DNA of 64,000 bases from Candidatus Saccharimonadota bacterium (GCA_016191105.1 JACPPH010000004.1:65230-129229), one strand, 5' to 3'. Counted from the stretch's first letter, positions 1,224-46,820 are shown. A program made the numbers and translations. Notes: generated by a model not told the origin, from the sequence alone.

Positions 1224-1383
1224 CCAAGCTTAAGAGCTAATTAGCCCTTGCCATAAGCATTTATTAGTGATACCATAAGGAATCTTTACCCAACTGCAGG
1301 ATCAGCAACGGAGCTGAGTAGGGGCAGAGGGTGAGGGTAGATGTACCCCTTTACATTCATCTACACCGAAGAGGAGGATTTCG

Positions 1384-1680
1384 GTGAAACGAGAGAGAGT
1401 ATTCAACGAAGCTGCACACGAACTGGTGTGCAGTGAGGCGGATCTTCGGATCCAAGAATGGCTCGATGGGAGGTCGCGGCGACAGCGACAAGTCGAACGT
1501 GACCCGGGCCTGAACGTACAGCTCACTGTCGAGGTGTACGGCGTGCTCAGGCGGAACTATCTGGTGGGCCAAGGCGTTGCGATCAGCGACACCCAGCTTG
1601 CTCGGTGCTTCCGACGCGCCAAGACACTCTCACACGAGACATTCGACCTCGTTCCTTCGACCGTGCTTGTGCACGCCTGA
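1384..1680 (+). CDS. Hypothetical protein, first ORF of high-GC island A
   Basis: GTG start 9 nt after a GAGGAGG Shine-Dalgarno. High-GC codon usage contrasts with the flanking genes. Confidence 0.4.
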   Translation: MKRERVFNEAAHELVCSEADLRIQEWLDGRSRRQRQVERDPGLNVQLTVEVYGVLRRNYLVGQGVAISDTQLARCFRRAKTLSHETFDLVPSTVLVHA

Positions 1681-1696
1681 GCGGGGGGAGGACGAC

Positions 1697-2263
1697 TTGA
1701 AGACGAGGATAGCAGACCTGAAGCAACTCGCCGTCGAGGCGACTGCCAAGGTCACATCATCACCCGCGGTCAGGAAGGCTCTTGAGGAGCAGTTGCTCGA
1801 GGAGCTGAAGCAGAGGATCGGACGTCGTTCGTTGACGACGGCTCGATCGGAAGCGGCGATCAAAGAGGTTCTCGATCAAGACCGCCTGCTCAGCATGGCG
1901 GCGTGGGCCTTCGTCCAGCTACCAGAACTGGAGCAGAGTCGGGAGGTGGCGCTCAAGGCGCTCAACCTGCTGAGTCAGCCCCACTTCGACGTGCTGCCCG
2001 AACAGCTCAACGACACGATTGAACTCGCCGACTTCTACACCCGCAACGCAACTCGAGTTGTCACGGCCGGTCCGAGGCAGGTGCTCGAAGGTGCGTCGAG
2101 GGCGCTCAAGATGGACGGGCGCTTCGTGGCGCGGCTACTCCAGTCAGGAGTACAGCTGCGTGACACAACGCCAACCTTCAGCAGAGCTCTGCGAACCCGG
2201 GAGGCGCTGCCAGGTGAGATCGGGAGCGTTCGAACGGTTCCGAGGGTGATGCAGCCCGCATAG
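1697..2263 (+). CDS. Hypothetical protein, second ORF of island A; probable TTG start coupled to the upstream stop
   Basis: The TGA of the upstream ORF is followed directly by GGGGGGAGGACGAC-TTG in frame with the 228-aa ORF. The ORF ends just before two consecutive perfect hairpins. Confidence 0.35.
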   Translation: MKTRIADLKQLAVEATAKVTSSPAVRKALEEQLLEELKQRIGRRSLTTARSEAAIKEVLDQDRLLSMAAWAFVQLPELEQSREVALKALNLLSQPHFDVLPEQLNDTIELADFYTRNATRVVTAGPRQVLEGASRALKMDGRFVARLLQSGVQLRDTTPTFSRALRTREALPGEIGSVRTVPRVMQPA

Positions 2264-2290
2264 GCTGAACTTCGCGGCAACAAAGGGGGC

Positions 2291-2355
2291 TCCGGGCCGG
2301 GGTGAGCGATCACTCCGGCCCGGACGGGCGACCACCAAACAGGTGGTCGTTTTCA
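2291..2355 (+). terminator. Tandem hairpins closing island A (tccgggccgg...ccggcccgga, then cgaccacc-aaaca-ggtggtcg-TTTTC)
   Basis: Perfect 10-bp and 8-bp stems; the second is followed by a T-run. Confidence 0.5.
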
Positions 2356-2412
2356 GTTATTATCCAAAACTTGTTTGCATTTTATACGGCTTTGGTGGGT
2401 ATAATAGATTCT

Positions 2413-9665: not shown

Positions 9666-9730
9666 CATTGTCATCTCGAGCGTAGTCGAGAGATCTCGGA
9701 TCTTAGGGAGAGCGACAATCACGGAGGTTG
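9651..9730. repeat. Left-end junction motif of island B (ctcccaaaaacctRa ... gatcttNgggagaNcgacaaYc)
   Basis: Homologous to 13071-13116. Contains the inverted repeat ctctccc/gggagag. Confidence 0.55.
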
Positions 9731-9741
9731 GCGAAAGCACT

Positions 9742-9960
9742 CTACCGAGCCAGAGGTGGCTCTTCGTGAACACCTCCTTGAGGGTATGGTCGTGGTGAGG
9801 GTGGTTGGGCGGTGCAGCGGTCGAGCAGTACTACGAATACGCTGGCGATGAGGCCTAAGCATATGAGTAGCCAAAAGCCCTTCCATATGCCCCGAAGCAT
9901 GTCTCCAAGGCAGCCCATGTCAGTAGTGGCAGTTGGGGTCGTCGTAGACCACGTTGCCAT
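9742..9960 (-). CDS. Small membrane protein, island B
   Basis: 72 aa with a hydrophobic helix. Its ATG abuts the TAA of the upstream 57-aa ORF. Confidence 0.35.
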   Translation of the reverse strand: MATWSTTTPTATTDMGCLGDMLRGIWKGFWLLICLGLIASVFVVLLDRCTAQPPSPRPYPQGGVHEEPPLAR

Positions 9961-10134
9961 TTACGACTTGGCTAGAGGAGTAGTCGCCTTGCACTCCTTA
10001 ACGCGCTGACGAGCTCCAAGCATCGCCAGAACCATCAGTATTGCACCGATGGTTAAGAAGATGATGATCAAGATTCTGAGTCGCCTGCGATAGATCGCGT
10101 TTAACTCAGCTTCATTATGGGCATGCGCCTCCAT
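9961..10134 (-). CDS. 57-aa single-TM protein (MEAHAHNEAELNAIYRRRLRILIIIFLTIGAILMVLAMLGARQRVKE...), island B
   Basis: Not in the supplied ORF table because it is under 60 aa. GAAGGAG Shine-Dalgarno 7 nt upstream. Homologous to the 48-aa ORF at 13180-13326 (shared AI-RRRL plus an Ile-run TM). Confidence 0.35.
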   Translation of the reverse strand: MEAHAHNEAELNAIYRRRLRILIIIFLTIGAILMVLAMLGARQRVKECKATTPLAKS

Positions 10135-10185
10135 GAATCACTCCTTCTTGGTGATTGTCGGGTTGCGGGATATCGAACTGACATC

Positions 10186-10231
10186 CTCCCAAACAATTTA
10201 ACACGTTAAACTGTTTGGGAGAACGACAACC
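10186..10231. repeat. 17-bp inverted repeat (ctcccaaacaatttaac / gttaaactgtttgggag) followed by aacgacaacc; internal copy of the island junction motif
   Basis: Seen directly. The same tttgggagaacgacaacc string occurs at 13098-13116. Confidence 0.6.
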
Positions 10232-10274
10232 ATACTTTGCATTGCGCTCCCTCCGGGCAGGTGCCGGAATTGTG

Positions 10275-10823
10275 CTACATGCTTGGGCAACGCGGGGGAC
10301 AGCGACCGGGCTCACAACAGCCTTGGTCAGGGTCTTGACTCGCATCTTTGCCAGCAGGCCGGCAGTTGGTACTGTCGCAGGCTCCTGGCTCGGGCACTGA
10401 TCCTGGCGGGACCGTGCCCCGATCAGATACTCCAGGAACCGTGGCGGGTGGGATGCAGGGAGGCGTGGGGTCTTGGATGCAGTAGCGCGGTGGCACCACA
10501 TCGCAGTTGCCTCGTGCCTCGCATACCACCGCCGGGTTGTTGAACACGCTCGAGCATTTGCTACCAGGATCCAGCTTCCTTGGATCGCCCTCGGTCATAG
10601 GCGGGCAGCCTCGCACATCCGGGATGGTGCCACCGAAGTGGGGGGAAACCACTGTCGTCTTCGATGGCGGGCACGGGTCGTTGGGCCCGTAGAACACCAC
10701 ATTGCCGCTGACCTGATCGGGCGGGCAGATGGTCTTGGTAGGGGCGCTGTCGTTCGGACCGGCCTGGCCGGTGCAAGAGGCGGCAGCCAGGATGAACGGG
10801 ATGAGTATCGGTAGGCGCTTCAT
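10275..10823 (-). CDS. Cys/Pro-rich lipoprotein (signal MKRLPILIPFILAAASC)
   Basis: Lipobox-like LAAASC, about 20 Cys and many Pro. An AAAGGGG Shine-Dalgarno precedes the ATG at 10823. High GC. Confidence 0.5.
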   Translation of the reverse strand: MKRLPILIPFILAAASCTGQAGPNDSAPTKTICPPDQVSGNVVFYGPNDPCPPSKTTVVSPHFGGTIPDVRGCPPMTEGDPRKLDPGSKCSSVFNNPAVVCEARGNCDVVPPRYCIQDPTPPCIPPATVPGVSDRGTVPPGSVPEPGACDSTNCRPAGKDASQDPDQGCCEPGRCPPRCPSM

Positions 10824-10956
10824 GTGAGCACCCCTTTCGTGAGTAGTATGGTTGTCGATTGTAAAGGTAGAGGAATGCTCCTCCCCTAAACACTCATTCG
10901 CTGGAGAGCGAATTAAGTACTTGGGGGAGGCCCCATCCACCTTTCGGTGGAAAGGA

Positions 10957-11499
10957 CTACCCTGGAATTTGTGGTGGACCGACTACTTCGTCGTAGGTGT
11001 CGGGCGTGAGCCAGGGCTCCACGATGATGACGCCGCCGGTGTTGCGGTGTCGAGCCAAGTTCATGATCGCAACTTCCAGCTGTTCGGTATCACGCATGTA
11101 GCCGATCGAGCTGAACAGGCATGTCACCACATCGAAGAACGACGGGTTGCGGTCAAGGAAGCCCGGGGTACTCAAGCTGAAGGTGAGCATGTCGGCACAG
11201 ATCAAGTTGACCTCTGGCAGGCGCTTGCGAGCCATCTCGAGCTGTTGGGGAGACAGGTCAATGCCGACCACCTTGCTGAACCAGGCGGCGAGATGCTGCA
11301 GGTGCAGGCCAGTGCCGCAGGCCACGTCGAGCAAGCTCATGTCACGAGGGTGCTTGCCGGTCCTTTGCTCGGCGATTTCGAGCACTCGGCTGGCCTCGAC
11401 GCTGTAGTCCTTGAGGCTCTCATAGAGAGTGTCGTACCAGACCGCCGAGTGGGTGTAGGCAGTCATGTCTTCGGTTGTATCCATATTGGTGTTGGTCAT
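10957..11499 (-). CDS. Class I SAM-dependent methyltransferase
   Basis: Motif I LDVACGTGLH. An acidic loop and motif IV-like region follow. High GC. GGAG Shine-Dalgarno. Confidence 0.7.
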   Translation of the reverse strand: MTNTNMDTTEDMTAYTHSAVWYDTLYESLKDYSVEASRVLEIAEQRTGKHPRDMSLLDVACGTGLHLQHLAAWFSKVVGIDLSPQQLEMARKRLPEVNLICADMLTFSLSTPGFLDRNPSFFDVVTCLFSSIGYMRDTEQLEVAIMNLARHRNTGGVIIVEPWLTPDTYDEVVGPPQIPG

Positions 11500-11551
11500 G
11501 TCAAAACTCCAGGGATCGGGTTGCTAGCCTATGCCAGCAACGTGTAGCAAG

Positions 11552-11580
11552 ATATTATAATAAAAGCTATATAAAGTCAA
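11552..11580 (-). promoter_or_regulatory. Sigma70-type promoter for the leftward island B operon (TTGACT-N17-TAATAT), overlapping a divergent TTGACT on the plus strand
   Basis: Read on the minus strand. Homologous to the island C promoter (TTGACWTWMTATAGCTYTT). Confidence 0.45.
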
Positions 11581-13085: not shown

Positions 13086-13116
13086 ATTATTTTAGATCTT
13101 TGGGAGAACGACAACC
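13071..13116. repeat. Left-end junction motif of island C (ctcccaaaaacctaa ... gatctttgggagaacgacaacc)
   Basis: Homologous to 9651-9730. Inverted repeat ctcccaaa/tttgggag. Confidence 0.55.
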
Positions 13117-13179
13117 TTCGTCGAAACACCCCCGGCGACGCACTATGGAAGTGCGTATCTTATGGTGCCGGTATGTTGA

Positions 13180-13326
13180 CTATCCGGTGACCCGCTTCTT
13201 CGCGAGTTTGATGACGAACTCGAGAAGCAGGGCGCCGGAGAGGGCGAGGCCGAACGTGGAGACGATGATGATTATGTACTCATCGCTCTCATTCAGCCTC
13301 CGGCGAATCGCACGAACGGGGTTCAT
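13180..13326 (-). CDS. 48-aa single-TM protein (MNPVRAIRRRLNESDEYIIIIVSTFGLALSGALLLEFVIKLAKKRVTG), island C
   Basis: Under 60 aa. A GTGAGGTG Shine-Dalgarno overlaps the stop of the upstream ORF. Homologous to the 9961-10134 ORF. Confidence 0.35.
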   Translation of the reverse strand: MNPVRAIRRRLNESDEYIIIIVSTFGLALSGALLLEFVIKLAKKRVTG

Positions 13327-13335
13327 CGAATCACC

Positions 13336-13641
13336 TCACTTGTGGTAGTTGCGGTGAGGGTTGACAGCAGCGATGAACGGGACGGCGACTGCGGCCAAGA
13401 GCGCCACAATCAGGCCCATCACACGGTCACGTACCTCGAACTGCTGATCGAGTGCCACGTAGGCACCGAGCACGATCGAAGCGACAGAGAGAACGAGAAG
13501 GCCGTAGCACCAGATAATGCGATTGCCAACTTCATCTGTGTCCATCGTGTCGAGGATTCGTGCGCGAATCCTCTGGCTGGTGGCGTCGTCGAGCTCTGGT
13601 CCTCCGCTGCGGAAATCCCGCAGGGGATCCAAATCATCCAT
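13336..13641 (-). CDS. 101-aa membrane protein, island C
   Basis: Two hydrophobic segments. GGAGG Shine-Dalgarno. High GC. Confidence 0.4.
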   Translation of the reverse strand: MDDLDPLRDFRSGGPELDDATSQRIRARILDTMDTDEVGNRIIWCYGLLVLSVASIVLGAYVALDQQFEVRDRVMGLIVALLAAVAVPFIAAVNPHRNYHK

Positions 13642-13729
13642 GGGTTGACCTCCAGGGTCGTGGAATGGTTGTCATTTGGTTGTCGAAGGTCGCTCTGGGC
13701 GGTTGCCCAAAGGACCAGCGAACCTGAAC

Positions 13730-13758
13730 ATAGTACCATAAGAGCTATAGTATGTCAA
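13730..13758 (-). promoter_or_regulatory. Sigma70-type promoter for island C (TTGACA-N17-TACTAT)
   Basis: Read on the minus strand. Shares tatagct spacer sequence with the island B promoter. Confidence 0.45.
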
Positions 13759-14720: not shown

Positions 14721-14797
14721 AGCTTGTAATTTTTGATTTTGCAGGTATGATTAGCTGGTAATATTCACGTGTCACAACCTTTAAGGAGGTGAGAGCG

Positions 14798-15034
14798 GTG
14801 AGTGAATGGCGTACCAAATATGAGGATCCGACGACCAAGGGCTACCAGCTTCATTTCCTCGGTGAGGAAGGGGATGGGTGGACAGTCATCGAGATGCACA
14901 ATGGCACGAACGCCTGTGTCCCTGGTGGCAGGTGCGACGATCTCTGGCTCGAGTTCGACACGTCTGAGGGGGCGCTAGATCGAGCCAAGCTGGCAGTTCA
15001 GCAAGCAAGACAAGCTCAGGAGGCGGAATCATGA
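14798..15034 (+). CDS. Hypothetical protein, island D ORF1
   Basis: GTG start 8 nt after AAGGAGG. An extended -10 promoter (TGGTAATAT) lies upstream. High GC. Confidence 0.35.
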   Translation: MSEWRTKYEDPTTKGYQLHFLGEEGDGWTVIEMHNGTNACVPGGRCDDLWLEFDTSEGALDRAKLAVQQARQAQEAES

Positions 15035-15258
15035 TTTTGTTTGGATGGCGCACCGAAAGGATCGATAAGGCCGGGATGTGGTTGCACACCAAACCTGGCG
15101 TGGGTCGTGTCGAAGAGAACTACAACGGCACCGGCTGTTATCCAATCAGTGCTACTGGCGGGCCCCTACTGCCGCCAGGTGAGAAGTTGACCGGTGCGTT
15201 TGCTCTGTTGCGCGCCAAGCATATGGTTGAGACCAACGTCAATCAGTTTTACGGCTGA
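15031..15258 (+). CDS. Hypothetical protein, island D ORF2
   Basis: ATGA overlap with ORF1. AGGAGG lies inside the upstream coding sequence. Confidence 0.35.
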   Translation: MILFGWRTERIDKAGMWLHTKPGVGRVEENYNGTGCYPISATGGPLLPPGEKLTGAFALLRAKHMVETNVNQFYG

Positions 15259-15276
15259 GCCGCCACAGTGGCATTT

Positions 15277-15319
15277 AAGCCCGAAGGAAGGAGCTTTCCC
15301 TCGGGCTTCTTCTATTTTT
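15277..15319 (+). terminator. Rho-independent terminator of island D (aagcccga...tcgggctt + T-run)
   Basis: Stem-loop followed by cttctattttt. Confidence 0.6.
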
Positions 15320-15495
15320 AGTAAAAATTTTTAGGCTTTTGAATCTAGCGAGCATTTTCGTATGCTACAATTAATTTGAAATTGGTGGCCAACCTTTAGG
15401 AGGGTGGGCCATCACCGAACCCAAAACAAAAGGAGGTTGCGTAGGGATTACTGGCAAGCGGGAAAGCTGCTTTTAGAGAAAGCAGAGGTGACGGC

Positions 15496-15747
15496 ATGGC
15501 AACATTCGCAATCGAACGAAAGCAAGAAGAGGGCTTCGGGGTTTCGACCCTGACTGTGCTAAAGAGCGGCAGGCCATGGGCACGCATTACCTCGCTGGTG
15601 AGCGGGGAAGTGTGCAGCGTGTTCATTCCGCCAGACTCCGAGACCATGGTCAACGACAAGCCACTCCGGGAGCAGGAGGCCATTGACCTGGCCAAGGCCT
15701 TCAAGTATCCCCGGCAGAAGAAGCGGAAACAGCCAAAGGCGGCGTAA
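15496..15747 (+). CDS. Hypothetical basic protein, island E
   Basis: GAGGTGA Shine-Dalgarno. A promoter TTGAAT...TGCTACAAT (extended -10) sits ~140 nt upstream. High GC. Confidence 0.35.
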   Translation: MATFAIERKQEEGFGVSTLTVLKSGRPWARITSLVSGEVCSVFIPPDSETMVNDKPLREQEAIDLAKAFKYPRQKKRKQPKAA

Positions 15748-15820
15748 CGCATCTCTTCGTTGGCGGACATAAGCGGGTCTGAGGGTGTGGTCCTCTCGGA
15801 CCCACTCTCATTTATAATCA

Positions 15821-15851
15821 AAAACCACTCATGCTTACTCGAGTGGTTTTT
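15821..15851. terminator. Bidirectional terminator (aaaaccactc-N10-gagtggtttt) between island E and rpsT
   Basis: Perfect 10-bp stem with A-run and T-run flanks. Confidence 0.7.
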
Positions 15852-16257: not shown

Positions 16258-16729
16258 AGCGCTCAGTATACCGCATTAAGGCCCATCTGTAAAGAACCGC
16301 GTAGTGGCAAGTGCAAGTATAGAATGCTACTAAGCTTTTGTGCGTCTAGTGCTGGCGGGGAGAGGTGGGGCTAGCGCTCAGTTGAACTCCTCCAAACCAC
16401 CGGCAAAAGTCGAACCACACAACTGCCTGCCCTCTTTGCTTCCGTGGATCGGGAGATGACCCAGGGATAGAGGGGTCCGCATATCAGACGGCCAACAAGG
16501 AGGTGATCCATGACTCGCAATCGTGGATCCACCACTGCTGTCATCTCTTCCGCACAGGAGATCGGCTTCTAGGCCAGCGCCTACTGAAGTCGCAAGACAG
16601 TAATACCAACGGGCATAGCCGCTGCGGTGAACGCCCTGACCGCATCCATCGAGCGCTCAACCATCGCCTGCGTTGAGTGCTTATCACGACGAACTCGAGT
16701 GCCGCACCCCAGCTCTCGAACGGGACTAC

Positions 16730-16766
16730 GCCCCCGGCCGTAAGGCCGGGGGCTACCCATTTTTGT
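16730..16766 (+). terminator. Strong rho-independent terminator (gcccccggcc-gtaa-ggccgggggc + ttttt) closing high-GC segment G
   Basis: 10-bp GC stem plus T-run. Confidence 0.65.
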
Positions 16767-18863: not shown

Positions 18864-18893
18864 CTTGACAAGAGCCTAACTTTATAGTATACT
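18864..18893 (+). promoter_or_regulatory. Sigma70 promoter TTGACA-N17-TATACT upstream of island F
   Basis: Consensus -35 and good -10 with 17-nt spacing. Confidence 0.5.
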
Positions 18894-19042
18894 CTACAGA
18901 TTCAATCTTCGCTGTTCGCTAGTCAGCGAAAGCGAATTGTTGAACGCTCCTTGCTATTGCCTGCATTCTTGCGGGCAATCTGATGAGAAATTTTGAAATC
19001 TAAATAGTCAGCCCACCACAACTTCGCCCTTAGGAGGCAATC

Positions 19043-19456
19043 ATGGGTATCAACTATGCTGTCAGCGATCTGGGTGATGCCGACGGGTTGGCCGGAGAAC
19101 CGATCGATCAGCGCGCACTCGATCTAGCCGAGGCGCTCGAGATGTTCGTCGGCCTCACACATGATGCGGGTGCGAACTTCACGGTTCAGATCACCCTCGT
19201 CGACGAGACCAAGGTGGTCGTCTACTACACCCACTACCTGGGTTTGGTACCGTCGTCCAACCCGGAGAGGCTGTACAACAGCAGCAACTACGGGTTCTTC
19301 TACGCGTTCGAGAAGGATCCCGAGGATCATCTCGACACCTTCGACCAGTTCCTGTTCACCGTGGGGTGCATCGTCAAGGCGGCGCCCTGGATCTGCACCG
19401 AGCGGGTGCTGCGCCGCATCGTCGCCGGCGACGATGCTGGCCAACCAGCAGCATGA
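19043..19456 (+). CDS. Hypothetical acidic protein F1 (island F)
   Basis: AGGAGG Shine-Dalgarno 6 nt upstream. High GC. Confidence 0.4.
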   Translation: MGINYAVSDLGDADGLAGEPIDQRALDLAEALEMFVGLTHDAGANFTVQITLVDETKVVVYYTHYLGLVPSSNPERLYNSSNYGFFYAFEKDPEDHLDTFDQFLFTVGCIVKAAPWICTERVLRRIVAGDDAGQPAA

Positions 19457-19570
19457 TCATCGTTGTGGTGGAATGTGGGGGCCCTTCGGGGCCCCTGCCA
19501 CCACCAGGCTGACTATTTAGATATTCTCGTTAGCTTGCCCGTAAGGAACTGCAAACGATTGGAGATAATC

Positions 19571-19717
19571 ATGGATAAGAATGCGCAGATCATCAAGCTG
19601 GGGGTCTACTCCGAGCTCAACCTGACCTACGCCACCCGCAACGTCTGGTTCGACGACATCCTCATCGGCCATGTGCCGGCGGAGGATCTCGTGGAGCCCG
19701 AAGAGATCAGCAGCTGA
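19571..19717 (+). CDS. 48-aa hypothetical protein F2
   Basis: GGAG Shine-Dalgarno. Trimmed from the 84-aa table ORF to the internal ATG that has an RBS. Confidence 0.3.
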   Translation: MDKNAQIIKLGVYSELNLTYATRNVWFDDILIGHVPAEDLVEPEEISS

Positions 19718-19795
19718 ACCCCCAACGCAGGCAACAACGAAGCAAGGAGCTCCCGAGAACCGTTCTCCGCCAGCCGGCGGAACGCGGTGCTCGGG

Positions 19796-19849
19796 CCAGC
19801 TCCCGAGTTCTGATCCGCTGTCCAACGGAATTCAGGATTCAGGAGCTGG
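19796..19849 (+). repeat. 54-nt imperfect palindrome (ccagctcc...ggagctgg), copy 1, downstream of F2
   Basis: Near-identical copy at 20341-20394 downstream of F3. Confidence 0.6.
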
Positions 19850-19887
19850 AGTGTTACTCTAGCAAAAGTTCCTTGCAGTATCCGTAA

Positions 19888-19908
19888 CTTGTAGCAGTAT
19901 GCTACAAG
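19888..19908. promoter_or_regulatory. Perfect palindrome cttgtagca-gta-tgctacaag (operator-like) overlapping an extended -10 TGCTACAAG upstream of F3
   Basis: Seen directly. 9-bp arms. Confidence 0.45.
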
Positions 19909-19929
19909 TTCAATCGATTGGAGTGACTC

Positions 19930-20295
19930 ATGGAAGTGAAACACGAGAGAGGCGTCGTCGTGGCGTTCTATCCCGGGAGCGATTCCGGTGTTCTCGGCGT
20001 CTACGACGACAGGCTCATGCTGACCGACGAGGAGATCCTGTTCCATCTCGGTGATGGAACGATGATCAAGATCATCGATGACGACGCTGTCTTCGGTGAG
20101 CCGTTCGGCGATGACCAGAGCCCAGATGCGTCGTTGTTGCGGTGCCCCCGGGTTGGAGAGCTCGTCGTCTTCGAGAGGACCGAGCAGGACGGCGAGAACG
20201 TGAAGGCACGGCCATGGACGTACGGCTTCCTCTACGACAACTTCACGGGGGACATGAGGCCACCCTCCGGGGTGAGCAAGCGGCAGCCTGCCTGA
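19930..20295 (+). CDS. Hypothetical acidic protein F3
   Basis: GGAG Shine-Dalgarno. High GC. Asp/Glu-rich. Confidence 0.4.
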   Translation: MEVKHERGVVVAFYPGSDSGVLGVYDDRLMLTDEEILFHLGDGTMIKIIDDDAVFGEPFGDDQSPDASLLRCPRVGELVVFERTEQDGENVKARPWTYGFLYDNFTGDMRPPSGVSKRQPA

Positions 20296-20340
20296 AGCCC
20301 AACCCCAACAAGCAAGGAGCAACGGGCCGACTAGTTCGGC

Positions 20341-20394
20341 CCAGCTCCCGAGTTCTGATCCGCTATCCAGCGGAATTCAGGATTCAGGAGCTGG
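20341..20394 (+). repeat. 54-nt imperfect palindrome, copy 2
   Basis: See 19796-19849. Confidence 0.6.
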
Positions 20395-20494
20395 AACGCT
20401 TTAGTTCGAGCAAATCGCTCTTTGTTTTTGCAATACCTGGCCACGAGGTTCGTGGCAAGCAACCGACGGAAACAGACTACGAAAGGAAACCGTC

Positions 20495-21106
20495 ATGACA
20501 ACACACCTCTCCGAAGAGGCCCGCAAGATGATCGAGGACTTCACCACCGCCACCGTGAGCGCGTGGATGGATGCTGGCATCATCAAGACCAACTCCTGGG
20601 GCGTATGGCTCGAGGCCGACGACCCCAACGGCGACTTCGAGAACGCCGTCGATCACCGGTTCGGCTTCGACCACCCCGAGGGCAAGCACGACGCCGAGTG
20701 GTACATCGCCAACGCCAAGGGCAAGTGCGAAGCCTGCTTCGCCACCGGCAAGGACAGCCACGAGGCTGTTCGAACCTGGCAAGGCATGCTCAACGGCGTG
20801 GACGGCATCTTCCCTTGGGGCGGCGCGATCATCGACACCGACTATGGAATCTGCGTCGGCGTCAGCGGCTTCCGCGAGGACGAAGATCTGATGGTGGCCC
20901 GTGCCATCCGCAACTTCATCGTCATGCTGTTGGATCGCAAGGGGCAGAACTACATCGACGAGACCCGCGCACGCGGCAAGGACGATGCCCCCGATCCCAG
21001 CGACAGGTTCACCAGGGCCTCGAAGCCCGACGACTACGAGGACTTCGGCGAGGGTCCGATCGGCCGGGAGTTTTCGAAGACCACCCATCCGAACCTGACC
21101 ACCTAG
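20495..21106 (+). CDS. Hypothetical acidic protein F4 (203 aa)
   Basis: AAAGGAAA Shine-Dalgarno. High GC. Followed by the perfect hairpin gagcatccgcc-tca-ggcggatgctc (21129-21153). Confidence 0.45.
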   Translation: MTTHLSEEARKMIEDFTTATVSAWMDAGIIKTNSWGVWLEADDPNGDFENAVDHRFGFDHPEGKHDAEWYIANAKGKCEACFATGKDSHEAVRTWQGMLNGVDGIFPWGGAIIDTDYGICVGVSGFREDEDLMVARAIRNFIVMLLDRKGQNYIDETRARGKDDAPDPSDRFTRASKPDDYEDFGEGPIGREFSKTTHPNLTT

Positions 21107-21236
21107 TCGACAAGCAATGCAAAGAGCCGAGCATCCGCCTCAGGCGGATGCTCACAGCTCTCAAGCTAATCAGTTATGATTGGTTTAAGAGCTGAATCCA
21201 TAAGTCATTCTGAACTTGTTGCAGAATCTCAAAATT

Positions 21237-29276: not shown

Positions 29277-29476
29277 AGCATGATAGTTTTGGTTGAGAAT
29301 AATAGGTGTTCTCTAGCCAATAATTAGCCGGCGCGGCTTGACAAGCCATATTAGTTATGGTAAGTTCCAATTGACAGGAAGGCCAAAATCTAGCCTTCGT
29401 GCCGTAGCTTGCAGGTTGATAGAAGGGAGTTAGCACTGACGAGATAGCGACAAAAGCGAAACGAAAGGACGATCCC

Positions 29477-29680
29477 ATGGAGGTTAACTGGAGAAACACC
29501 AGCGGAAGCCGCCGCGAACACGACAGGGTTGCCAGTCTGAGTACCGACAAGATCGAGGGGCGACTGTCCCGACTTCACAGCCCCGACGGGCGTAGGTCAC
29601 CGTACGGCATTACAACTGCCGACGAAGAAGAGGCGCTCCTGTCTGAGCTCGACGCTCGCAGGTACCCCAACGTCGAGTGA
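29477..29680 (+). CDS. Hypothetical 67-aa protein in small high-GC island J
   Basis: High-GC ORF between the IS and the ABC transporter. Followed by terminator gggcagctc-aacgac-gagctgccc-TTTGCGTTTT (29743-29776). Confidence 0.3.
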   Translation: MEVNWRNTSGSRREHDRVASLSTDKIEGRLSRLHSPDGRRSPYGITTADEEEALLSELDARRYPNVE

Positions 29681-29774
29681 CACAAACCCTCACACCAACA
29701 CCAACCTCAAAAAGCAAAAAAGGCGATCAATGACGATCGCTTGGGCAGCTCAACGACGAGCTGCCCTTTGCGTT

Positions 29775-31532
29775 TTAGAGCTCGATTTTACCCGTGGCCG
29801 ACTGCATATCGAATAGCTTTTTGTACAAGCCATCATTTTTCATGAGTTCTTCATGGGTACCACGCTCTTCTATTTTGCCCTTCTCGAGCACCAAAATCTC
29901 ATCGGCGTGCCGCACAGTACTCAGGCGGTGGGCGATTATGAGCGCCATCCGACCCCTCATAAGCTTTTTAAGACCATCTTGAACTAGTCGCTCACTTTCG
30001 CTATCCAATGCACTGGTAGCCTCGTCTAGGATTACTAGCTGTGGGTCTTTAAGTATAGCCCTGGCAATGGCCACTCGCTGCTTCTGTCCACCACTAAGCT
30101 TTATGCCGCGTTCGCCGACTAGCGTGTCGTAGCCACTTGGTAATTCAGATATAAATTCTTTGGCATGGGCTTGTTCAGCCGCTGTATAAATAGCTTCTTT
30201 CTTTGCGTGTGGGTTACCAATTGCCAGATTATCTTTCAGCGATGTGTTGAATAGGGTTACGTCTTGCATGACCATGCCCATATGTTTTCGGATTGATTCT
30301 TGGGTAAAGCTATCAATATTGCCACCATTTATTTCTATCTGGCCAGAGGTAGGTTCATAGAACCGAAGCAGCAATTTGGTAATCGTACTCTTACCAACGC
30401 CCGATGGGCCGACTAAGGCTACAGTTTTTCCAGGAGCAATAGAGAAGTTTAGATTCTTAACGGCACCCTTCTTGCCCTTTTTGTAGTCGAAACTAACATT
30501 TTTGAACTCGATGGAATCTAGGCTCTCTAGGTCTTTGGCATTGGCTTTGTCTTCTAGGGTTGGCTTGGTTTCAAATATATCCATTAGTCGACTCACATTT
30601 ACCTCAATACGGACATTGTTGTCGAAGAACCGACCAACACTTAGGGCAACACCACTTAGCTGAAGAAGATATAGTGCCACTAGAGCTACATCGCCCGGGC
30701 TATAGGCTTTGTGCAAGGCGCCAAAACCGACAATAATAATACTAATACTCATGCCAACATTGAATATGATGTCTCTAAAGAATATGTGGCGAGCCCATAT
30801 TGTTAGATACGTCTTATATTTACCCTCAGCCCTAGTGAGTTCTCGCTCATATTTTTGGTACTGCGATCCGGCCGCATTAAAAGATTTAATTACGCCGAAT
30901 TGAGAAAAAGTCTCTAACAAAATCCCACTGGCTTCTTCCTCGGCTTTTCTACCGGCCTTTTGCAGGTGTCTGGTTTTCTTTGCATTACGGATAAAGAGTA
31001 GTGTTTGAGCCGAAATGGCTAGTAGCATTACACCCACAATCGGCGGTGAGACGAAAAAGATAAACAAGAGATTGATAACGGTTTGGCTAACTCCTCCCAA
31101 TAAACCCCAGCTAAAGTTCCCAATCCAACTGATAATACCGTTAACACCGGAGATTATCTTGTTAGAAAGTGCCCCGCTCTTTTCCTGCTCAAAAAAGTCT
31201 AGTGAAAGAGATGACAGTTTTTGAAAAACCTGTCTACCAAGTATTTTCTCGAGCCGATAGTACAATCCTTCGTTTACTCTCCATTGGACAGTCTCGAAGA
31301 AACTAGAAAAAACACTTATTAATATCAGTAAAATGCCTAAAAATATTAATGCCTGGAGGGTGGAGACATTCGGCGCAAGACCAGATAGGCCAGCAACTCG
31401 ATTTATTATTAACTTAAGAACCTGTGGACGCAGAGCGTTGAGAATAGATGCAATAACACTTAAAGTAATCAGCACTGCCATGTAGCGCCGTAAATAAGGG
31501 ATTAGCTTCAGTCCTTTTCGGATGTTTTTCAT
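29775..31532 (-). CDS. ABC transporter, fused permease/ATP-binding exporter (MsbA-like)
   Basis: Six TM segments in the N-terminus, Walker A GPSGVGKST, signature LSGGQKQR, Walker B ILDEATSALD. Confidence 0.88.
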   Translation of the reverse strand: MKNIRKGLKLIPYLRRYMAVLITLSVIASILNALRPQVLKLIINRVAGLSGLAPNVSTLQALIFLGILLILISVFSSFFETVQWRVNEGLYYRLEKILGRQVFQKLSSLSLDFFEQEKSGALSNKIISGVNGIISWIGNFSWGLLGGVSQTVINLLFIFFVSPPIVGVMLLAISAQTLLFIRNAKKTRHLQKAGRKAEEEASGILLETFSQFGVIKSFNAAGSQYQKYERELTRAEGKYKTYLTIWARHIFFRDIIFNVGMSISIIIVGFGALHKAYSPGDVALVALYLLQLSGVALSVGRFFDNNVRIEVNVSRLMDIFETKPTLEDKANAKDLESLDSIEFKNVSFDYKKGKKGAVKNLNFSIAPGKTVALVGPSGVGKSTITKLLLRFYEPTSGQIEINGGNIDSFTQESIRKHMGMVMQDVTLFNTSLKDNLAIGNPHAKKEAIYTAAEQAHAKEFISELPSGYDTLVGERGIKLSGGQKQRVAIARAILKDPQLVILDEATSALDSESERLVQDGLKKLMRGRMALIIAHRLSTVRHADEILVLEKGKIEERGTHEELMKNDGLYKKLFDMQSATGKIEL

Positions 31533-35009: not shown

Positions 35010-35079
35010 TGCTTTACAGTATAGTTTTGAGCTGGTTAAATACCAATTAGGCTTTGTTCGTCGAAAACCTGGAGGAACC

Positions 35080-35400
35080 ATGGACAACAGCACTGCATCA
35101 GACCGGGTCCGTAGCTCGAGAGACCAACTGGTCAGATATCTTGAGGAACTTGGTGGCTATTCGGAGCAGCAACTAATCCAACTGATTGGGACCTGTGGAA
35201 CCAATCACCAACATCGAGCTAGCTGTGATAGGCACTTCTATCTGATCAAGCACCTCATCCACTGGCTTAAGTTTGGGCCCGTCTGGGTTCGAATCGACAG
35301 CCCGACCGGCCTAAGGTTCGCGCTGCCCGGGCCGAAGTACGAGATGTCGTGGTGGCAGATGGACTGGCCCGAGGGCATTCGGGTTTACTGCGAGGGCTAG
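35080..35400 (+). CDS. Hypothetical protein, high-GC island H
   Basis: GGAGG Shine-Dalgarno 5 nt upstream. Followed by a perfect 13-bp hairpin gcgtccgctgggg-aa-ccccagcggacgc (35413-35440). Confidence 0.35.
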   Translation: MDNSTASDRVRSSRDQLVRYLEELGGYSEQQLIQLIGTCGTNHQHRASCDRHFYLIKHLIHWLKFGPVWVRIDSPTGLRFALPGPKYEMSWWQMDWPEGIRVYCEG

Positions 35401-35594
35401 ACGTGCAAGGCCGCGTCCGCTGGGGAACCCCAGCGGACGCAGGCATGTTATTTACAGTGTAATATTTTTGCTTTACGCCCTCATTCAAACCTGATTAAAT
35501 AAGAGTACTAAAAATTTGCGAGAAAAAGTGTTGACATGTACGTTTCTTGTTCGGTACACTATCATTGAACATAATACGAACAAGGAGAAAGCCA

Positions 35595-37315: not shown

Positions 37316-37477
37316 CTACGCTTGAGTACGAATCTAAAAATCACGGCCGCCAGTACAACCCACAAAGCAATTACAACCACTTCACACTCCTCATTGCTAG
37401 GTATTATATTTGTTAAGCTATAATACTTCAATAGAAAAAACTTTTGTTTTTACAATCTCTGACACTCGATCTTCTTC

Positions 37478-37675
37478 GGCCGTTGCCAACGATCGGCAAG
37501 CGAAGCCATTAAGCAACGCTCTTGTTTGCGAGAATTTGGTTGTTACCAAACCGCGCTAGCCTCCAAGAAGTTTCGACTGGCTGAGCACTGCTAGACTGTA
37601 AGCATAGGCCAGGCGGTTTTGCTATCTTTTGCCAAGACAAAAGATAGTCGCCCGAAAGGGTGAAAGAATTTCAGC
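37478..37675 (+). ncRNA. Copy 3 (5' domain only) of the repeated structured non-coding element
   Basis: Aligns with copies 1 and 2 up to the gctatcttttg...caaaagatag hairpin. Confidence 0.4.
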
Positions 37676-39918: not shown

Positions 39919-40045
39919 AATTATACCAAACCTGGTGATACAATAAAATTATGGAAATAAGATTGGCCGACAGCTCAGACACAAAACAACTAGGTGAAAT
40001 GCGTTGGGATTTTCAGATCGAAGAGCCAACTGAAACTGTTTCTAG

Positions 40046-40128
40046 TGGTAAAAACCCTTAGGGGCGTATTGTTTGTAAATGTTCCTACCAGGCATGAAGC
40101 CCATTCTAAGGGTACGACCCTTAGAATA
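40046..40128 (-). mobile_element. Solo left-end remnant of the IS200/IS605-like element (includes the first ~17 codons of tnpA and the LE hairpin)
   Basis: ~85% identical to 29181-29276. The reading frame is broken after MGFMPGRNIYKQYAPKGFYH*. Confidence 0.6.
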
Positions 40129-40457
40129 CAAATTGGTTCGGCGCAATTGTAGCGCTTGGATTGGTGTACATACCACCGTACCAAACTACAGGCTACTCAC
40201 CTTGCTGTTGGGGCATAGGGTGATTTAGTATATGACATAGGTGTCTTGTCTCCCTGTTTATTAGTCATTTACAAGTCTGATAGACACCCGTTTTTGTTGC
40301 TAAGCTAGTGAACCCATTACAGTAGTGTTGACCCGGACCTGATTACCAAGTATAATTACATGGTTTTAAAAGCTAATTGACCTTTTTACTAAAGCATAAA
40401 TACAAACAGACTTTAGTGAAGCTCGCAACAAGCGAGGGATCCAAAGAAAGGAAATAA

Positions 40458-42197: not shown

Positions 42198-42199
42198 TC

Positions 42200-44014: not shown

Positions 44015-44190
44015 TTATAACAAATTAACAGGCATAATTCCAGATACAGCAGTCGACAAATAGCATACAAATATGTTATTATCTATTTCTCTTTGTTCCT
44101 ACTAGATCGGGGGATGCGTATGAAGAAGACGCTATTGTTAGTGGGTGCTTCAGTTGTGATCATGACTGGTGGTGTGGCAGCCGCCAGTTC
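43985..44190 (+). repeat. Copy A of a ~210-bp duplicated module (ychF 5' end, promoter, RBS, signal-peptide codons)
   Basis: Nearly identical to 45955-46170. Confidence 0.8.
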
Positions 44191-44374
44191 AAGTCTCGAT
44201 GCAAATACTGATATCGCAAAAGTCTTTCTCTTTAAAATTCTACCAAAAAAGATAGTGGATGATGACGATCGATGGCCAGAGTTGAAAGAAGCAGTGGATG
44301 CTTTAAGTCCATTAATAATTGGTTTGTATGATGTTTATATGAATGAGTTTGACAAATATCATTTGGCAACTTAA
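44120..44374 (+). CDS. Small secreted protein (signal peptide MKKTLLLVGASVVIMTGGVAAASS) with an AT-rich payload
   Basis: Start placed at the MKKT ATG after GGGGGATGCGT. Shares the first 27 residues with the 46101-46712 protein. Confidence 0.4.
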   Translation: MKKTLLLVGASVVIMTGGVAAASSSLDANTDIAKVFLFKILPKKIVDDDDRWPELKEAVDALSPLIIGLYDVYMNEFDKYHLAT

Positions 44375-44645
44375 AGAAAGTCTAATAATGAATCCTCTAG
44401 ATAACTTAGAAGAAAAACGACATGATCAGTTTAATATACAAACAAATCAGCTACTTGGTCAGATTGAAGAGTACCTTGTTAATGAAGGTGTAGAGCAGTA
44501 TGAACCTCGCTATACTAGTATCCGCAAAAAACCAAATGCAAAGATGCTAGGAATATGCCTAACGAGCAAGTGTTGGAATTAATAAACCAGTTGCGAGAAT
44601 TGGCTTGCTTTTTATACGATCGTTACCAAGCTAGTAAGCTAAAAA

Positions 44646-45692
44646 CTAGGTAGTCTCGGTTCGATCTACCATAAACTTTACTGCTTCGTTCATATTGATC
44701 GGAACTATCTCGATATCGGGATGCTTGGCGTGAAAAACTCTAAATATCTCATCAGAAAAAGCTTGTCCAACGGTTGGGACATGCTTAAAGTCTAAGATTA
44801 TACGCCTAAACTTATTTAGACCAGCTAGCAGACGCCTTGCTTGCGAACGAGAAACATATATTGTCCGCATAGTGTAAAGCTTAATTTTGATTTCTGTTTG
44901 GTCGAAAGCTGGCTCCTCAGGGTCTACTTGGTAATTAGAGAATACACTACTTAAGTGTAACTTTGTTTTTACATTTATATTAAACATAACTTCAGTTCCT
45001 CGGAGATCTGGCTTAGATTCCTCCACAAAAACATCCTGAATTCTATTATCTATTCTTAATTTGTAACCAAAACTTTCCAGAGTAAATAAATCTCCAATCT
45101 TTGATGTAAAGAATATGCCTTCTCCAGAATGAGCCTTGGGAGCAGTAGTTGTTTTTCCTTTCAATAAGTCTTGTATCGCCTCAATCTCAGACTTTAAGTT
45201 TCTTTTCTTCATTACATTGCGAAAAACACCTATACCAAAGTCACGTACAACAAACGTAAGAATATCTTTTTCCTGGCTAATTTCAATCTCAATATACTTA
45301 GTTTTCGAGTGCTCAATAGCATTATTTAGCATTTCTGAAAATGCATAAGCAAAAATGCTCTGTACATTTTCTAGGAGATTATTTAAGAATGGTTTTTCTT
45401 TTTTAATCCCATCTAGTACTTCGTATTCTTCCAGCTCTTTATTCACCAGTCTTTTTTTAATTCGTTTGCCCAATGCATCGGCATACTGAGGAAGCGCATA
45501 GACCGACCACCTGCCACTTCCTTCTCTTACTAGAGTACCGTCTTTAACCATGCTATTCACGACTGTACTTACATAAGATCTCGCATAGGGTTTTTGTGTA
45601 TGTTCGCGCAACGCTTTAATGACATCAACTGTCTTAAATTGCTTCTTCTCCCTGGCTATTTTTAAAATGGTTTCTTTAATCATAATGCTCAT
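44646..45692 (-). CDS. wHTH, GHKL-type ATPase (HATPase_c), STAS-like three-domain protein
   Basis: N-box EMLNNAIEHS, G1 VRDFGIGV, G2-like HSGEGIFF, C-terminal STAS/DUF4325-like region. Located in an AT-rich island. Confidence 0.65.
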   Translation of the reverse strand: MSIMIKETILKIAREKKQFKTVDVIKALREHTQKPYARSYVSTVVNSMVKDGTLVREGSGRWSVYALPQYADALGKRIKKRLVNKELEEYEVLDGIKKEKPFLNNLLENVQSIFAYAFSEMLNNAIEHSKTKYIEIEISQEKDILTFVVRDFGIGVFRNVMKKRNLKSEIEAIQDLLKGKTTTAPKAHSGEGIFFTSKIGDLFTLESFGYKLRIDNRIQDVFVEESKPDLRGTEVMFNINVKTKLHLSSVFSNYQVDPEEPAFDQTEIKIKLYTMRTIYVSRSQARRLLAGLNKFRRIILDFKHVPTVGQAFSDEIFRVFHAKHPDIEIVPINMNEAVKFMVDRTETT

Positions 45693-45719
45693 CTTAATTT
45701 ATATGTTAGGTACTATATC

Positions 45720-45835
45720 ACTCTATGTCAGGCTGTATGTCAAGTACTTTATAATTCTATGTTATATTATCTGTTAAACACTAGTTTTATGGCTATGTTA
45801 GTAAGTAAAAGTGCTATGTAAGATTCTATGTCAAG
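45720..45835. repeat. Array of six CTATGT(C/T)A direct repeats upstream of the GHKL-ATPase gene
   Basis: Copies at 45723, 45734 (GTATGT), 45757, 45792, 45813 and 45826. Confidence 0.6.
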
Positions 45836-45954
45836 TTTTAGTTAGATAAATGACTATATCAATTAAAGGAGTATTTTTTAATAAATTCGTTGGAATATCC
45901 ACGCTTACCTTGATCGGGGAGTGGCATCTTGAATGTCAGCTTGAATGGTATGGT

Positions 45955-46170
45955 TACAGCCTGACTATGCCAATCGAAAGACTCATAAGTTGCAATTATA
46001 ACAAATTAACAGGCATAATTCCAGATACAGCAGTTGACAGATAGCATACAAATATGTTATTATCTATTTCTCTTTGTTCCTACTAGATCGGGGGATGCGT
46101 ATGAAGAAGACGCTATTGTTAGTGGGTGCTGCAGCTGTGATCATGACTGGTGGTGTGGCAGCCGCCAGTT
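45955..46170 (+). repeat. Copy B of the duplicated promoter/signal-peptide module
   Basis: See 43985-44190. Confidence 0.8.
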
Positions 46171-46712
46171 CGCAGGTTCCATACCCGCAGCCGCCAGACT
46201 TCCCAACGCCGCTCGGCTGCTACGACACCACCCAAGGGCCCGATGGGCCTCAAGTGGGGTCTACCTGGGTGGCAACCATCACCACATCGCCAGCTCAACC
46301 GCCTTTCGATACCCACATCACCGTCGTGGCGGGCCAGGGGTACTGGCTGATGCAGGTCAGGGGCGGTTGGTTCAACCCGGATCAGACGGCTGGTGGCTTC
46401 GTCTGGAACAACCCGGATGGCTTCAACAACACCACGTACGAAACCAACGGCTATGGTGCTGGTTTCGGGGTGGTGGCTGTGGCTTGTCCATGGCCGTGCC
46501 TGGGGGCGCCACCATTGCCCACCACCAGCACGTTGCCAGAGCCGTACTGCGCGGCTCCGCCAACCACGCACCTGAGCTTGCCGTCGGCATCGGTCAGTCT
46601 GGCCACTACCAGCACGACCACCACCACAGTGAGCTTAGCCAGCACCGAATCATCCACCACAGCTCAGCCGGCCACGCAGGCCGTGGTGGCAACGCCACGC
46701 TTTACCGGCTGA
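46101..46712 (+). CDS. Chimeric secreted protein: low-GC signal peptide fused at ~46170 to a high-GC Pro/Thr/Gly-rich payload
   Basis: The composition switch coincides exactly with the end of the duplicated module. A perfect terminator hairpin lies at 46725-46770. Confidence 0.5.
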   Translation: MKKTLLLVGAAAVIMTGGVAAASSQVPYPQPPDFPTPLGCYDTTQGPDGPQVGSTWVATITTSPAQPPFDTHITVVAGQGYWLMQVRGGWFNPDQTAGGFVWNNPDGFNNTTYETNGYGAGFGVVAVACPWPCLGAPPLPTTSTLPEPYCAAPPTTHLSLPSASVSLATTSTTTTTVSLASTESSTTAQPATQAVVATPRFTG

Positions 46713-46820
46713 AGCACCATATTGCTCCACGGGAAGGGGGTTTGCCCCTTCCCGTGGAGCCGTTTTGTTTATTGACTTGTTATCTTCAGCCGATCGCCTA
46801 TAATAAAAAGCGTAACTATT

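Follow-up and report, generated by a model that had tools for sequence, protein, structure and literature searches.

How do many short GC-rich segments come to lie between the housekeeping genes of a genome of only 48% GC? The question is raised by a 64,000-nucleotide (nt) stretch of a Candidatus Saccharimonadota bacterium (GCA_016191105.1, JACPPH010000004.1:65230-129229), called the window below and numbered from its first letter. Its mean GC content is 0.481 (standard deviation of 300-nt windows, 0.058), and exact protein look-ups tie the window to a 133.7-kb contig of a Candidatus Saccharibacteria metagenome-assembled genome (NCBI entries MBI27980xx, locus tags HYX70_021xx-022xx), with copies of the proteins also in the Logan assembly of run SRR12113392. 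A preliminary description, which had correctly thought of a Saccharibacteria-like epibiont, had listed ten such segments and regarded them as one family of autonomous expression cassettes from a high-GC donor. The reading that we favor, with moderate confidence, is that they are ordinary genomic islets, that is, small lineage-specific accessory units at permissive gaps, with coding sequence that came from, or exchanges with, a high-GC actinobacterial-type pool. In the best version of this reading import was old and recurrent, with no common mobilisation machinery and no link to phages.

The GC peaks lie where the preliminary description had placed them, and in nine of its ten segments they are distinct (0.55-0.63 GC); only islet E is marginal, being barely above its flanks (0.548 and 0.518). 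The earlier estimate of approximately 60-65% GC applies to islets A and I but is too high for the others. The islets and their open reading frames (ORFs) are given below, with lengths in amino acids (aa) and with GC3 standing for GC content at third codon positions.

Islet A, 1290..2355, plus strand, GC 0.611: directly upstream of dnaG, with a promoter-like site at 1248-1276 and two terminator hairpins at 2290-2352.
A1, 1384-1680, plus strand: 98 aa, GC3 0.66, without Pfam match.
A2, 1697-2263, plus strand: 188 aa, GC3 0.74, without Pfam match.
Islet B, 9666..11580, minus strand, GC 0.570: polA-fpg junction, with a promoter at 11580-11552 and boundary motifs at 9703-9720 and 10214-10231.
B1, 10957-11499, minus strand: truncated class I S-adenosylmethionine methyltransferase.
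B2, 10275-10823, minus strand: Cys/Pro-rich lipoprotein-like protein.
B3, 9961-10134, and B4, 9742-9960, minus strand: small membrane proteins.
Islet C, 13086..13758, minus strand, GC 0.552: promoter at 13758-13730, boundary motif and hairpin at 13071-13116.
C1, 13336-13641, minus strand: 101 aa, membrane protein.
C2, 13180-13326, minus strand: 48 aa.
Islet D, 14724..15319, plus strand, GC 0.555: holA-rpsT junction, with D1 (14789-15034) and D2 (15031-15258) overlapping at ATGA and a terminator at 15286-15313.
Islet E (marginal), 15340..15851, plus strand, GC 0.531: E1 (15496-15747; 83 aa, GC3 0.74) and a terminator at 15775-15803.
Islet G, 16300..16766, no strand assigned, GC 0.580: between rpsT and a TrmB-like gene, with a terminator at 16729-16752.
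Islet F, 18864..21153, plus strand, GC 0.583: DHH-truB junction, with a promoter at 18865-18893 and a terminator at 21128-21152.
F1, 19043-19456; F2, 19571-19717; F3, 19930-20295; F4, 20495-21106; all plus strand: the ORFs of islet F.
60-nt palindromes between the cassettes of islet F: 19791-19850 and 20336-20395.
Islet J, 29400..29776, plus strand, GC 0.560: J1 (29477-29680, 67 aa) and a terminator at 29743-29766, adjoining an IS200-like transposase remnant.
Islet H, 35050..35447, plus strand, GC 0.575: upstream of recA, with H1 (35080-35400, 106 aa) and a hairpin at 35406-35447.
Islet I, 45957..46770, plus strand, GC 0.634: I1 (46101-46712; 203 aa, secreted, Thr/Pro-rich) and a hairpin at 46724-46760.

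Pooled island genes had GC contents of 0.60, 0.46 and 0.73 at the first, second and third codon positions (GC1, GC2 and GC3), compared with 0.54, 0.40 and 0.52 for the backbone, and GC3 was highest in F1-F4 (0.79-0.88). The dinucleotide relative-abundance distance between islands and backbone was 181, compared with a mean of 27 and a maximum of 44 for equal-sized backbone samples. Lys made up 3.4% of island proteins versus 8.6% of backbone proteins, and the ratio R/(R+K) was mostly 0.5-0.9 versus 0.2-0.45. The contrast is therefore strongest at third codon positions and, judging from the dinucleotide and amino acid data, is more than one of base composition. Horizontally acquired islets are expected to deviate in just these properties, and the segments do so in GC content (0.53-0.63 against 0.48), GC3 and dinucleotide signature; GC3, dinucleotides and Lys content bear out the earlier view of discrete, foreign-looking islets. 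No tRNA, transfer-messenger RNA (tmRNA) or Rfam family was detected in the window, so structured RNA genes, which we considered as a source of high GC, do not explain the peaks. Another GC-rich stretch (1-650) proved to be the Pro/Ala/Gln-rich part of a protein and was not counted as an islet. The islets are not assembly artefacts, as A and B are joined to the same flanking genes in the independent Logan assembly (a 30.5-kb contig, run SRR12113392) and homologous islets occur at matching junctions in unrelated metagenome samples.

We then asked how the islets are placed in the lineage. A scan of GTDB (one genome per species, with the window's Fpg as query) gave 80 syntenic Saccharibacteria loci with Fpg identities of 54-68%. 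The order rpoD-polA-fpg-holA-rpsT-DHH-truB-rpsO-pnp is kept across these 80 related species, and the gaps separating the genes can be as short as 6 bp or as long as 5.6 kb. It is precisely in these variable gaps of the conserved block that islets B, C, D, E, G and F lie. Such variation of gap length in a conserved order, with islets in the gaps, points to insertion hotspots. The inserts are not GC-rich throughout the 80 relatives, where their mean difference from the backbone is about zero; GC-rich junction inserts are restricted to a subset of relatives that includes the window's clade. DNA exceeding the median GC by 0.09 or more made up 25% of the region in the window (top rank), 25% in L079 and 23% in L022, and below 6% in most relatives (L-numbers denote fetched loci of relatives; L022 and L002 are the same contig). 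In L002/L022 and L083, most junction ORFs had GC3 of 0.6-0.87, compared with 0.40-0.54 for the backbones. The GC-rich DHH-truB gap of distant relatives was also considered and was found to contain a low-complexity protein gene rather than an islet. L022 itself (CAVPRT010000011.1, 218 kb) is titled 'uncultured Acidimicrobiales bacterium', although it carries a Saccharibacteria-type block with Fpg approximately 65% and RpoD 89% identical to those of the window, at 0.49 GC. The contig probably belongs to an epibiont and was mis-binned, and co-abundance with an actinobacterial host may lie behind this.

Presence at these conserved loci is patchy, as expected of horizontally acquired islets: among the 80 species representatives, island genes were found only in L022, and a few further metagenomic relatives have some of them. 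For five of the ten islets (A, B, D, F and H), some relatives have a diverged counterpart at the same junction. At the polA-fpg junction, L002/L022 has homologues of B1 (61% identity), B2 (36%) and B4 (35%), which are GC-rich there too, and small ORFs with weak similarity to D1 lie at the holA-rpsT junction of L002 (E-value 2e-5) and of L096. Upstream of dnaG, L120, whose RpoD is 93% identical to that of the window, has an A1 homologue (43%) together with a 211-aa ORF. Similarly, an H1 homologue (45%) lies upstream of recA in L121, with a near-native GC3 of 0.52. Homologues of F1 (68-69%) were found directly upstream of truB in L083-L087 and L092-L095, and those of F4 (56-59%) in the DHH-truB gap of L092-L096. 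The content of this gap varies: F1, F2, F3 and F4 in the window; an 88-aa ORF, a 109-aa ORF and F1 in L083; an 83-aa ORF, an ICMT-family gene, F4 and F1 in L092; and an 88-aa ORF and F4 in L096. At the junction of islet J, L083 has a different GC-rich ORF (GC 0.66). Proteins of the positionally conserved islets are much more diverged than the backbone. The preliminary description had held that islands kept at the same positions with normal codon usage across the lineage would speak against its reading; the positions are indeed shared for A, B, D, F and H, but codon usage is mostly abnormal.

Where, then, does the coding sequence come from? All island proteins that were looked up and are present in the collection are singletons when clustered at 90% identity, and so is ribosomal protein S20; this indicates that the lineage is sparsely sampled. 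In an exhaustive phmmer search against 1.84 billion representatives, no homologue was found for A2, C1 and D2; A1 had one, H1 two, E1 two (weak), F1 five clusters, F3 six (all weak) and F4 approximately 25. Most island proteins thus appear from such searches to be orphans. Pfam recognises B1 alone (Methyltransf_25, _11 and _12 domains). At 180 aa, compared with 235-296 aa in its close homologues, B1 is shorter than all of them and hence C-terminally truncated; it may be a decaying gene that has lost its C-terminal part. F4 has a DUF336/HbpS-like alpha/beta fold and gave no Pfam match at E<=0.01 (PF03928 included) and no PDB sequence match. It differs from the DUF336/GlcG/HbpS haem-binding-like proteins in having approximately 45 extra C-terminal residues and no sequence-level Pfam match.

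F4 is also the family that ties the islets to a named high-GC lineage. A scan of Joint Genome Institute (JGI) metagenomes with an alignment of nine F4 sequences gave 22 loci, 16 of which were on contigs of 0.64-0.76 GC, with gene GC equal to that of the flanks. These high-GC copies adjoin dnaB (in L112, rplI, rpsR, ssb and rpsF are also near), and the proteins on either side match NCBI entries named Solirubrobacteraceae (Actinomycetota) exactly or almost exactly. Relative synonymous codon usage (RSCU) of the islands correlated at 0.81 with that of genes on Solirubrobacteraceae contigs and at 0.43 with that of the backbone, and the dinucleotide distance of islet F was 102 to Solirubrobacteraceae contigs versus 208 to its own genome. 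These comparisons support an actinobacterial-type gene pool as a likely source of the islets, documented for F4, with the caveat that F4 is only 40-44% identical to the Solirubrobacteraceae copies. Homologues of native composition in a plausible donor were seen for F4 and not for A1, A2, C1, D1, D2, E1, F1, F3 or H1. The proposal of a high-GC donor thus gains from the codon usage and from F4, whose homologues have native GC in Solirubrobacteraceae, and lacks a donor homologue for the nine proteins just listed.

The age of the islets was examined with the genes that are shared between genomes. For F1 and F4, the ratio of nonsynonymous to synonymous divergence (dN/dS) against orthologues was 0.36-0.55; backbone dN was comparable to or below island dN (much lower in the closest pair, L092 and L083), and backbone dS was saturated. 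Ratios below 1 indicate that the island genes are real but weakly constrained. By Nei-Gojobori (NG86) dS and a simulation that respected codon bias, island synonymous sites appeared less saturated than those of the backbone. We dropped the idea of recent transfer, in which the islands would be younger than the backbone, since composition-corrected four-fold distances erase most of this difference: F1 0.77 and F4 1.18 versus 1.0-2.0 for flanking genes, and B1 0.99 versus 1.05 and 2.2, in small samples of 46-76 sites per gene. In the closest pair, the distance was 0.15 for F1 and 0.11 for DHH. Similar corrected distances imply that the common islets are about as old as the splits between these genomes. 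Four-fold sites of shared island genes consist of 0.55 C, 0.21 G, 0.12 A and 0.11 T, and changes between strong bases (S<->S) account for 32% of their four-fold differences, compared with 10% in the backbone. Island synonymous differences are therefore close to the expectation of a stationary GC-rich composition.

The other codon positions and the proteins behave differently. F4 has GC1 of 0.56-0.69 and GC2 of 0.40-0.45 in low-GC genomes, versus 0.67-0.70 and 0.49-0.53 in Solirubrobacteraceae, and its ratio of Gly, Ala, Arg and Pro to Phe, Tyr, Met, Ile, Asn and Lys (GARP/FYMINK) is 1.1-1.7 versus 2.1-2.9. GC3 is nevertheless 0.76-0.90 in 9 of 11 F4 copies in low-GC contexts; lower values found in low-GC genomes are 0.69, 0.57 (L105) and 0.37 (L100). 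F1 relatives in five low-GC contexts have GC3 of 0.80, 0.85, 0.84, 0.64 and 0.91. Under simple amelioration GC3 is expected to decay first. Its persistence may be due to genes being acquired again and again from unsampled donors, to slow amelioration of sequences that were very GC-rich at first, or to active maintenance by selection or biased gene conversion.

Several of these observations weigh against an origin of the islets by import from a high-GC pool. GC3 of 0.8-0.9 is kept although four-fold divergence is similar to that of the backbone and GC1 and GC2 have relaxed, which is unlike simple amelioration. F4 is the sole island family with homologues in a high-GC genome, A2, C1 and D2 are without any homologue, and those of F1, H1, A1 and E1 were found only on contigs that are low in GC, Saccharibacteria-like or very short. 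In a neighbour-joining tree of F4, the Solirubrobacteraceae copies make up a shallow clade, surrounded by sequences from low-GC contexts that are more diverse; this topology leaves the direction of transfer unproven, and direction is argued here by composition. Besides, named relatives of B1 come from Saccharimonadales, Chloroflexi, Actinomycetota and Bipolaricaulota and are uninformative on the donor, or at most suggestive.

A rival explanation would have the island genes be fast-evolving natives confined to Saccharibacteria, and holds that their GC-richness is actively maintained by synonymous selection or GC-biased gene conversion, foreign origin being irrelevant or very ancient. It would account for the four-fold distances of F1, F4 and B1 (0.8-1.2 or saturated), which resemble those of flanking backbone genes, for the excess of S<->S changes, which fits a stationary C/G-rich composition, and for the high GC3 of both F4 (9 of 11 copies, with relaxed GC1, GC2 and amino acids) and F1, a family with GC3 of 0.64-0.91 and no high-GC home; most families are likewise without a homologue outside such low-GC contigs. 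However, the dinucleotide signature and RSCU are actinobacterial-like beyond what raised GC3 requires, copies of low GC3 do exist (L100, L105 and the H1 homologue), and F4 has chromosomal homologues of native composition in Solirubrobacteraceae. Strong codon selection is not seen in the ribosomal protein genes of this genome, flanking core genes lack the GC enrichment that hotspot gene conversion would produce, and the four-fold samples are small. We consider this explanation unlikely. A related possibility is that GC-rich, actinobacterial-style codon usage is actively maintained through standing exchange with a high-GC host, either as host-to-epibiont flux or, more radically, because the host cell is where the genes act or are delivered. 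It is suggested by GC3 of 0.8-0.9 at near-saturated synonymous sites and with relaxed protein composition, and we regard it as rather improbable.

A different kind of explanation concerns the arrangement of the islets rather than their composition, and here the promoters, ribosome-binding sites and boundary elements have to be considered. Most island ORFs have a GGAGG-type Shine-Dalgarno (SD) site in front of them. In the backbone, many operons appear to begin with a leaderless gene, whose start codon follows a TATAAT-like box at a distance of 5-10 nt (for example, starts at 11641, 13788, 16257, 31810, 38792, 57983 and 62088). The strong AGGAGG/GGAGG sites that had been described are thus genuine, and so is their contrast to the leaderless first genes of the backbone. 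The DNA upstream of islet first genes is AT-richer (0.33-0.50 GC) than the ORFs, which agrees with the described placement of promoters in AT-rich DNA; that of islet C, for instance, reads TTGACA-17-TACTAT with an upstream TG. GC-rich hairpins close eight islets (A, D, E, F, G, H, I and J), as had been noted, but promoter-like and terminator-like counts were not clearly above shuffled controls, so this architecture carries no statistical weight. A string said to be common to E, F and G occurs in E and F and is only an extended -10 promoter (TGCTACAAT-like). Neither is the layout the same in each islet, as B and C are on the minus strand and the ORF listing of G gave no supported gene, all its ORFs being short or broken. 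Backbone genes have promoters and terminators too, so the layout is generic and no evidence for one element family; the 'stereotyped cassette' is a generic free-standing transcription unit of promoter, SD site, ORFs and terminator. The islets have no common boundary sequence, integrase or transposase, and the proposal of a single system of autonomous cassettes is not sustained.

Some boundary elements do occur locally. The 18-nt motif GGTTGTCGTTCTCCCAAA with a hairpin is present in three copies, compared with 0.03 expected, at the 3' ends of minus-strand units in islets B and C. It is kept at the nucleotide level in the window and, at matching positions, in L002 and L096, with adjacent proteins diverged beyond recognition.

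GGTTGTCGTTCTCCCAAA motif in the window, minus strand: 9703-9720, 10214-10231 and 13099-13116.
GGTTGTCGTTCTCCCAAA motif in relatives: L002, 7307-7319 and 8701-8713; L096, 1089-1144.

The element could serve in termination, processing or recombination. A nudix ORF (9234-9665) and an AAA ORF (12426-13085) both end in ...LPKT* within its left arm. A scan of IMG/VR for the exact motif gave four matches without hairpin context, which were read as chance on a rough 17-mer estimate; the palindrome pattern gave no match there. The 60-nt palindrome, CAGCTCCCGAGTT...GGAGCTGG, lies between the cassettes of the DHH-truB gap in the window (twice), L096, L092 and L083. A third element, an AT-rich 215-nt module of promoter, 5' untranslated region and signal peptide, is duplicated with 96% identity (43976-44190 and 45957-46171); the GC-rich I1 is attached to one copy, a low-GC ORF to the other. 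The DNA between the two copies (44190-45957) has 33-37% GC and carries a HATPase/DUF4325 gene (44646-45692, minus strand) with a weakly AbiEi-like N-terminus; this intervening segment is a low-GC islet beside the high-GC islet I. We also observed a direct-repeat family of approximately 215-450 nt with strong predicted secondary structure (18440-18887, 22576-22940 and 37470-37700), in which RNAalifold counted 6-7 compensatory base-pair changes, whichever strand was taken. The promoter of islet F directly adjoins one copy, and rpsO has another upstream of it; no Rfam match was obtained, and blastn did not find the family in the fetched relatives. The boundary repeats can explain local duplication and reshuffling through homologous recombination. 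They are limited to single or neighbouring junctions, without attC features or an accompanying recombinase.

Searches for phages, plasmids and defence genes were negative. With tblastn, 17 island proteins (B1 was left out) gave no match in 50,697 phage records (INPHARED) or 72,556 plasmids, and no relative of F4, F1 or I1 was found in IMG/VR. The island proteins had no significant match in PHROGs, nor in PADLOC and NCBIfam, so that no defence or toxin-antitoxin gene was recognised among them. The suggestion of actinophage origin therefore finds no backing in INPHARED, IMG/VR or PHROGs. In domain scans no integrase, recombinase or transposase was next to the islets, except for an IS200-like remnant near J and apart from the local boundary repeats. 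This remnant of a Y1 transposase (Y1_Tnp match; 28618-29277, minus strand) adjoins islet J. A repeat of 87 nt (93% identity) with a hairpin was found at 29191-29277 and 40045-40131, 10.8 kb apart. Two small low-GC GIY-YIG domain genes flank truB (21216-21530, plus strand, and 22228-22515, minus strand; GC 0.33 and 0.38).

Could a dedicated cassette-shuffling system, integron-like or made of small repeat elements, with the boundary elements as recombination sites, have produced the islets? The three copies of the GGTTGTCGTTCTCCCAAA motif and hairpin, preserved in L002 and L096, would suit it, as would the 60-nt palindrome between cassettes of the DHH-truB array in four genomes, the differing order and combination of F1 and F4 among genomes, and the attachment of one promoter and signal-peptide module to two different cargos. 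Yet the domain scans found no integrase, recombinase or transposase adjoining the islets, each boundary element is confined to one junction or a neighbouring pair while other islets lack it, and attC-like R'/R'' cores were not detected. Unlike those of integrons, the cassettes come with promoters of their own, and no family was found at two junctions, except for distant F1 and F4 relatives in unrelated contexts. We judge such a system very unlikely. Still more improbable are remnants of actinophage or Saccharibacteria-phage genes (morons) or delivery by plasmids: although small orphan genes with their own promoter and terminator are typical of phage morons, and GIY-YIG genes and an IS200-like remnant are nearby, the phage records, plasmids, IMG/VR (F4, F1 and I1) and PHROGs had no matches, and structural and integration genes were absent. 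As for an assembly or binning chimera, in which high-GC Actinomycetota reads would be spliced into a Saccharibacteria contig, the window is indeed a metagenome-assembled contig and its high-GC segments are short. The A and B junctions recur in the independent assembly, homologous islets are at the same junctions in unrelated samples, native-type promoters lie at the junctions and the ORFs end in shared elements, all of which makes a chimera almost negligible as an explanation.

We therefore return to genomic islets and compare them with what has been described. In Lawrence-Ochman type analysis, horizontally acquired islets and islands have deviant GC content, codon usage and dinucleotides, are patchy in distribution, and lie between core genes with accessory genes of unknown function, as is the case here. 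The islets of the window differ from usual ones in being 0.4-2.3 kb long, numerous within 46 kb and GC-richer than the core, in having no tRNA, integrase or direct-repeat borders, and in that several of them are old and keep their synteny in relatives. Genes gained by transfer usually have more AT than the core. Host-to-epibiont gene transfer has already been proposed in Saccharibacteria, for example for streptococcal genes in clade G6 (PMC8386444); there, as here, a reduced-genome epibiont has genes with a composition suggestive of the host-type lineage. In the present case, the pool is high-GC and actinobacterial-type, the genes are tiny orphans and not metabolic genes, and F4 alone is tied to a named lineage. 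Islet F resembles integron arrays and clusters of attC sites lacking integron-integrases (CALINs) in its small ORFs of unknown function, the imperfect palindromes between them and their variable order. It differs in having no IntI or attC consensus (no GTTRRRY cores), in its own promoters and in a palindrome confined to one junction.

A mechanism for such islets may be outlined. Natural competence has been demonstrated in Saccharibacteria (PMC10633639), and a naturally competent epibiont would take up DNA, competence being the presumed route of entry. The window also has a type IV pilus cluster (49789-56557) with pilM, a PilB-like ATPase, a PilT-like ATPase and pilC, which fits the machinery for pili and competence that is known from Saccharibacteria. 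Illegitimate or homology-facilitated recombination would insert fragments into intergenic gaps, where they do no harm, and imported ORFs would come under native AT-rich promoters by promoter capture. The direction of transfer would be from high-GC bacteria to Saccharibacteria, with Solirubrobacteraceae-like Actinomycetota, one identified home of the F4 family, as candidate hosts. Islet ORFs would then evolve fast under weak purifying selection and be inherited, lost, duplicated and reshuffled locally, partly via the short conserved junction repeats.

The islets thus look like a known kind of event rather than a new cassette system; what is noteworthy is the density of tiny islets, the GC-rich direction and the persistence of GC3. 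The lasting GC-rich synonymous sites in a genome of 48% GC are an anomaly for models of amelioration, GC-biased gene conversion and codon selection. If the islets are imports, they exemplify the way in which new genes enter a minimal, competent genome, at a small number of safe landing sites; in other respects, accessory genes at insertion hotspots are nothing unusual. As obligate epibionts, Saccharibacteria depend on a host, and for most of their lineages none is known. If the islets come from the host lineage, they would offer a sequence-only clue to host identity, here Solirubrobacteraceae-like Actinomycetota, and if host flux is real, compositional and phylogenetic fingerprints of the F4/Solirubrobacteraceae kind could name the hosts of uncultured Saccharibacteria.

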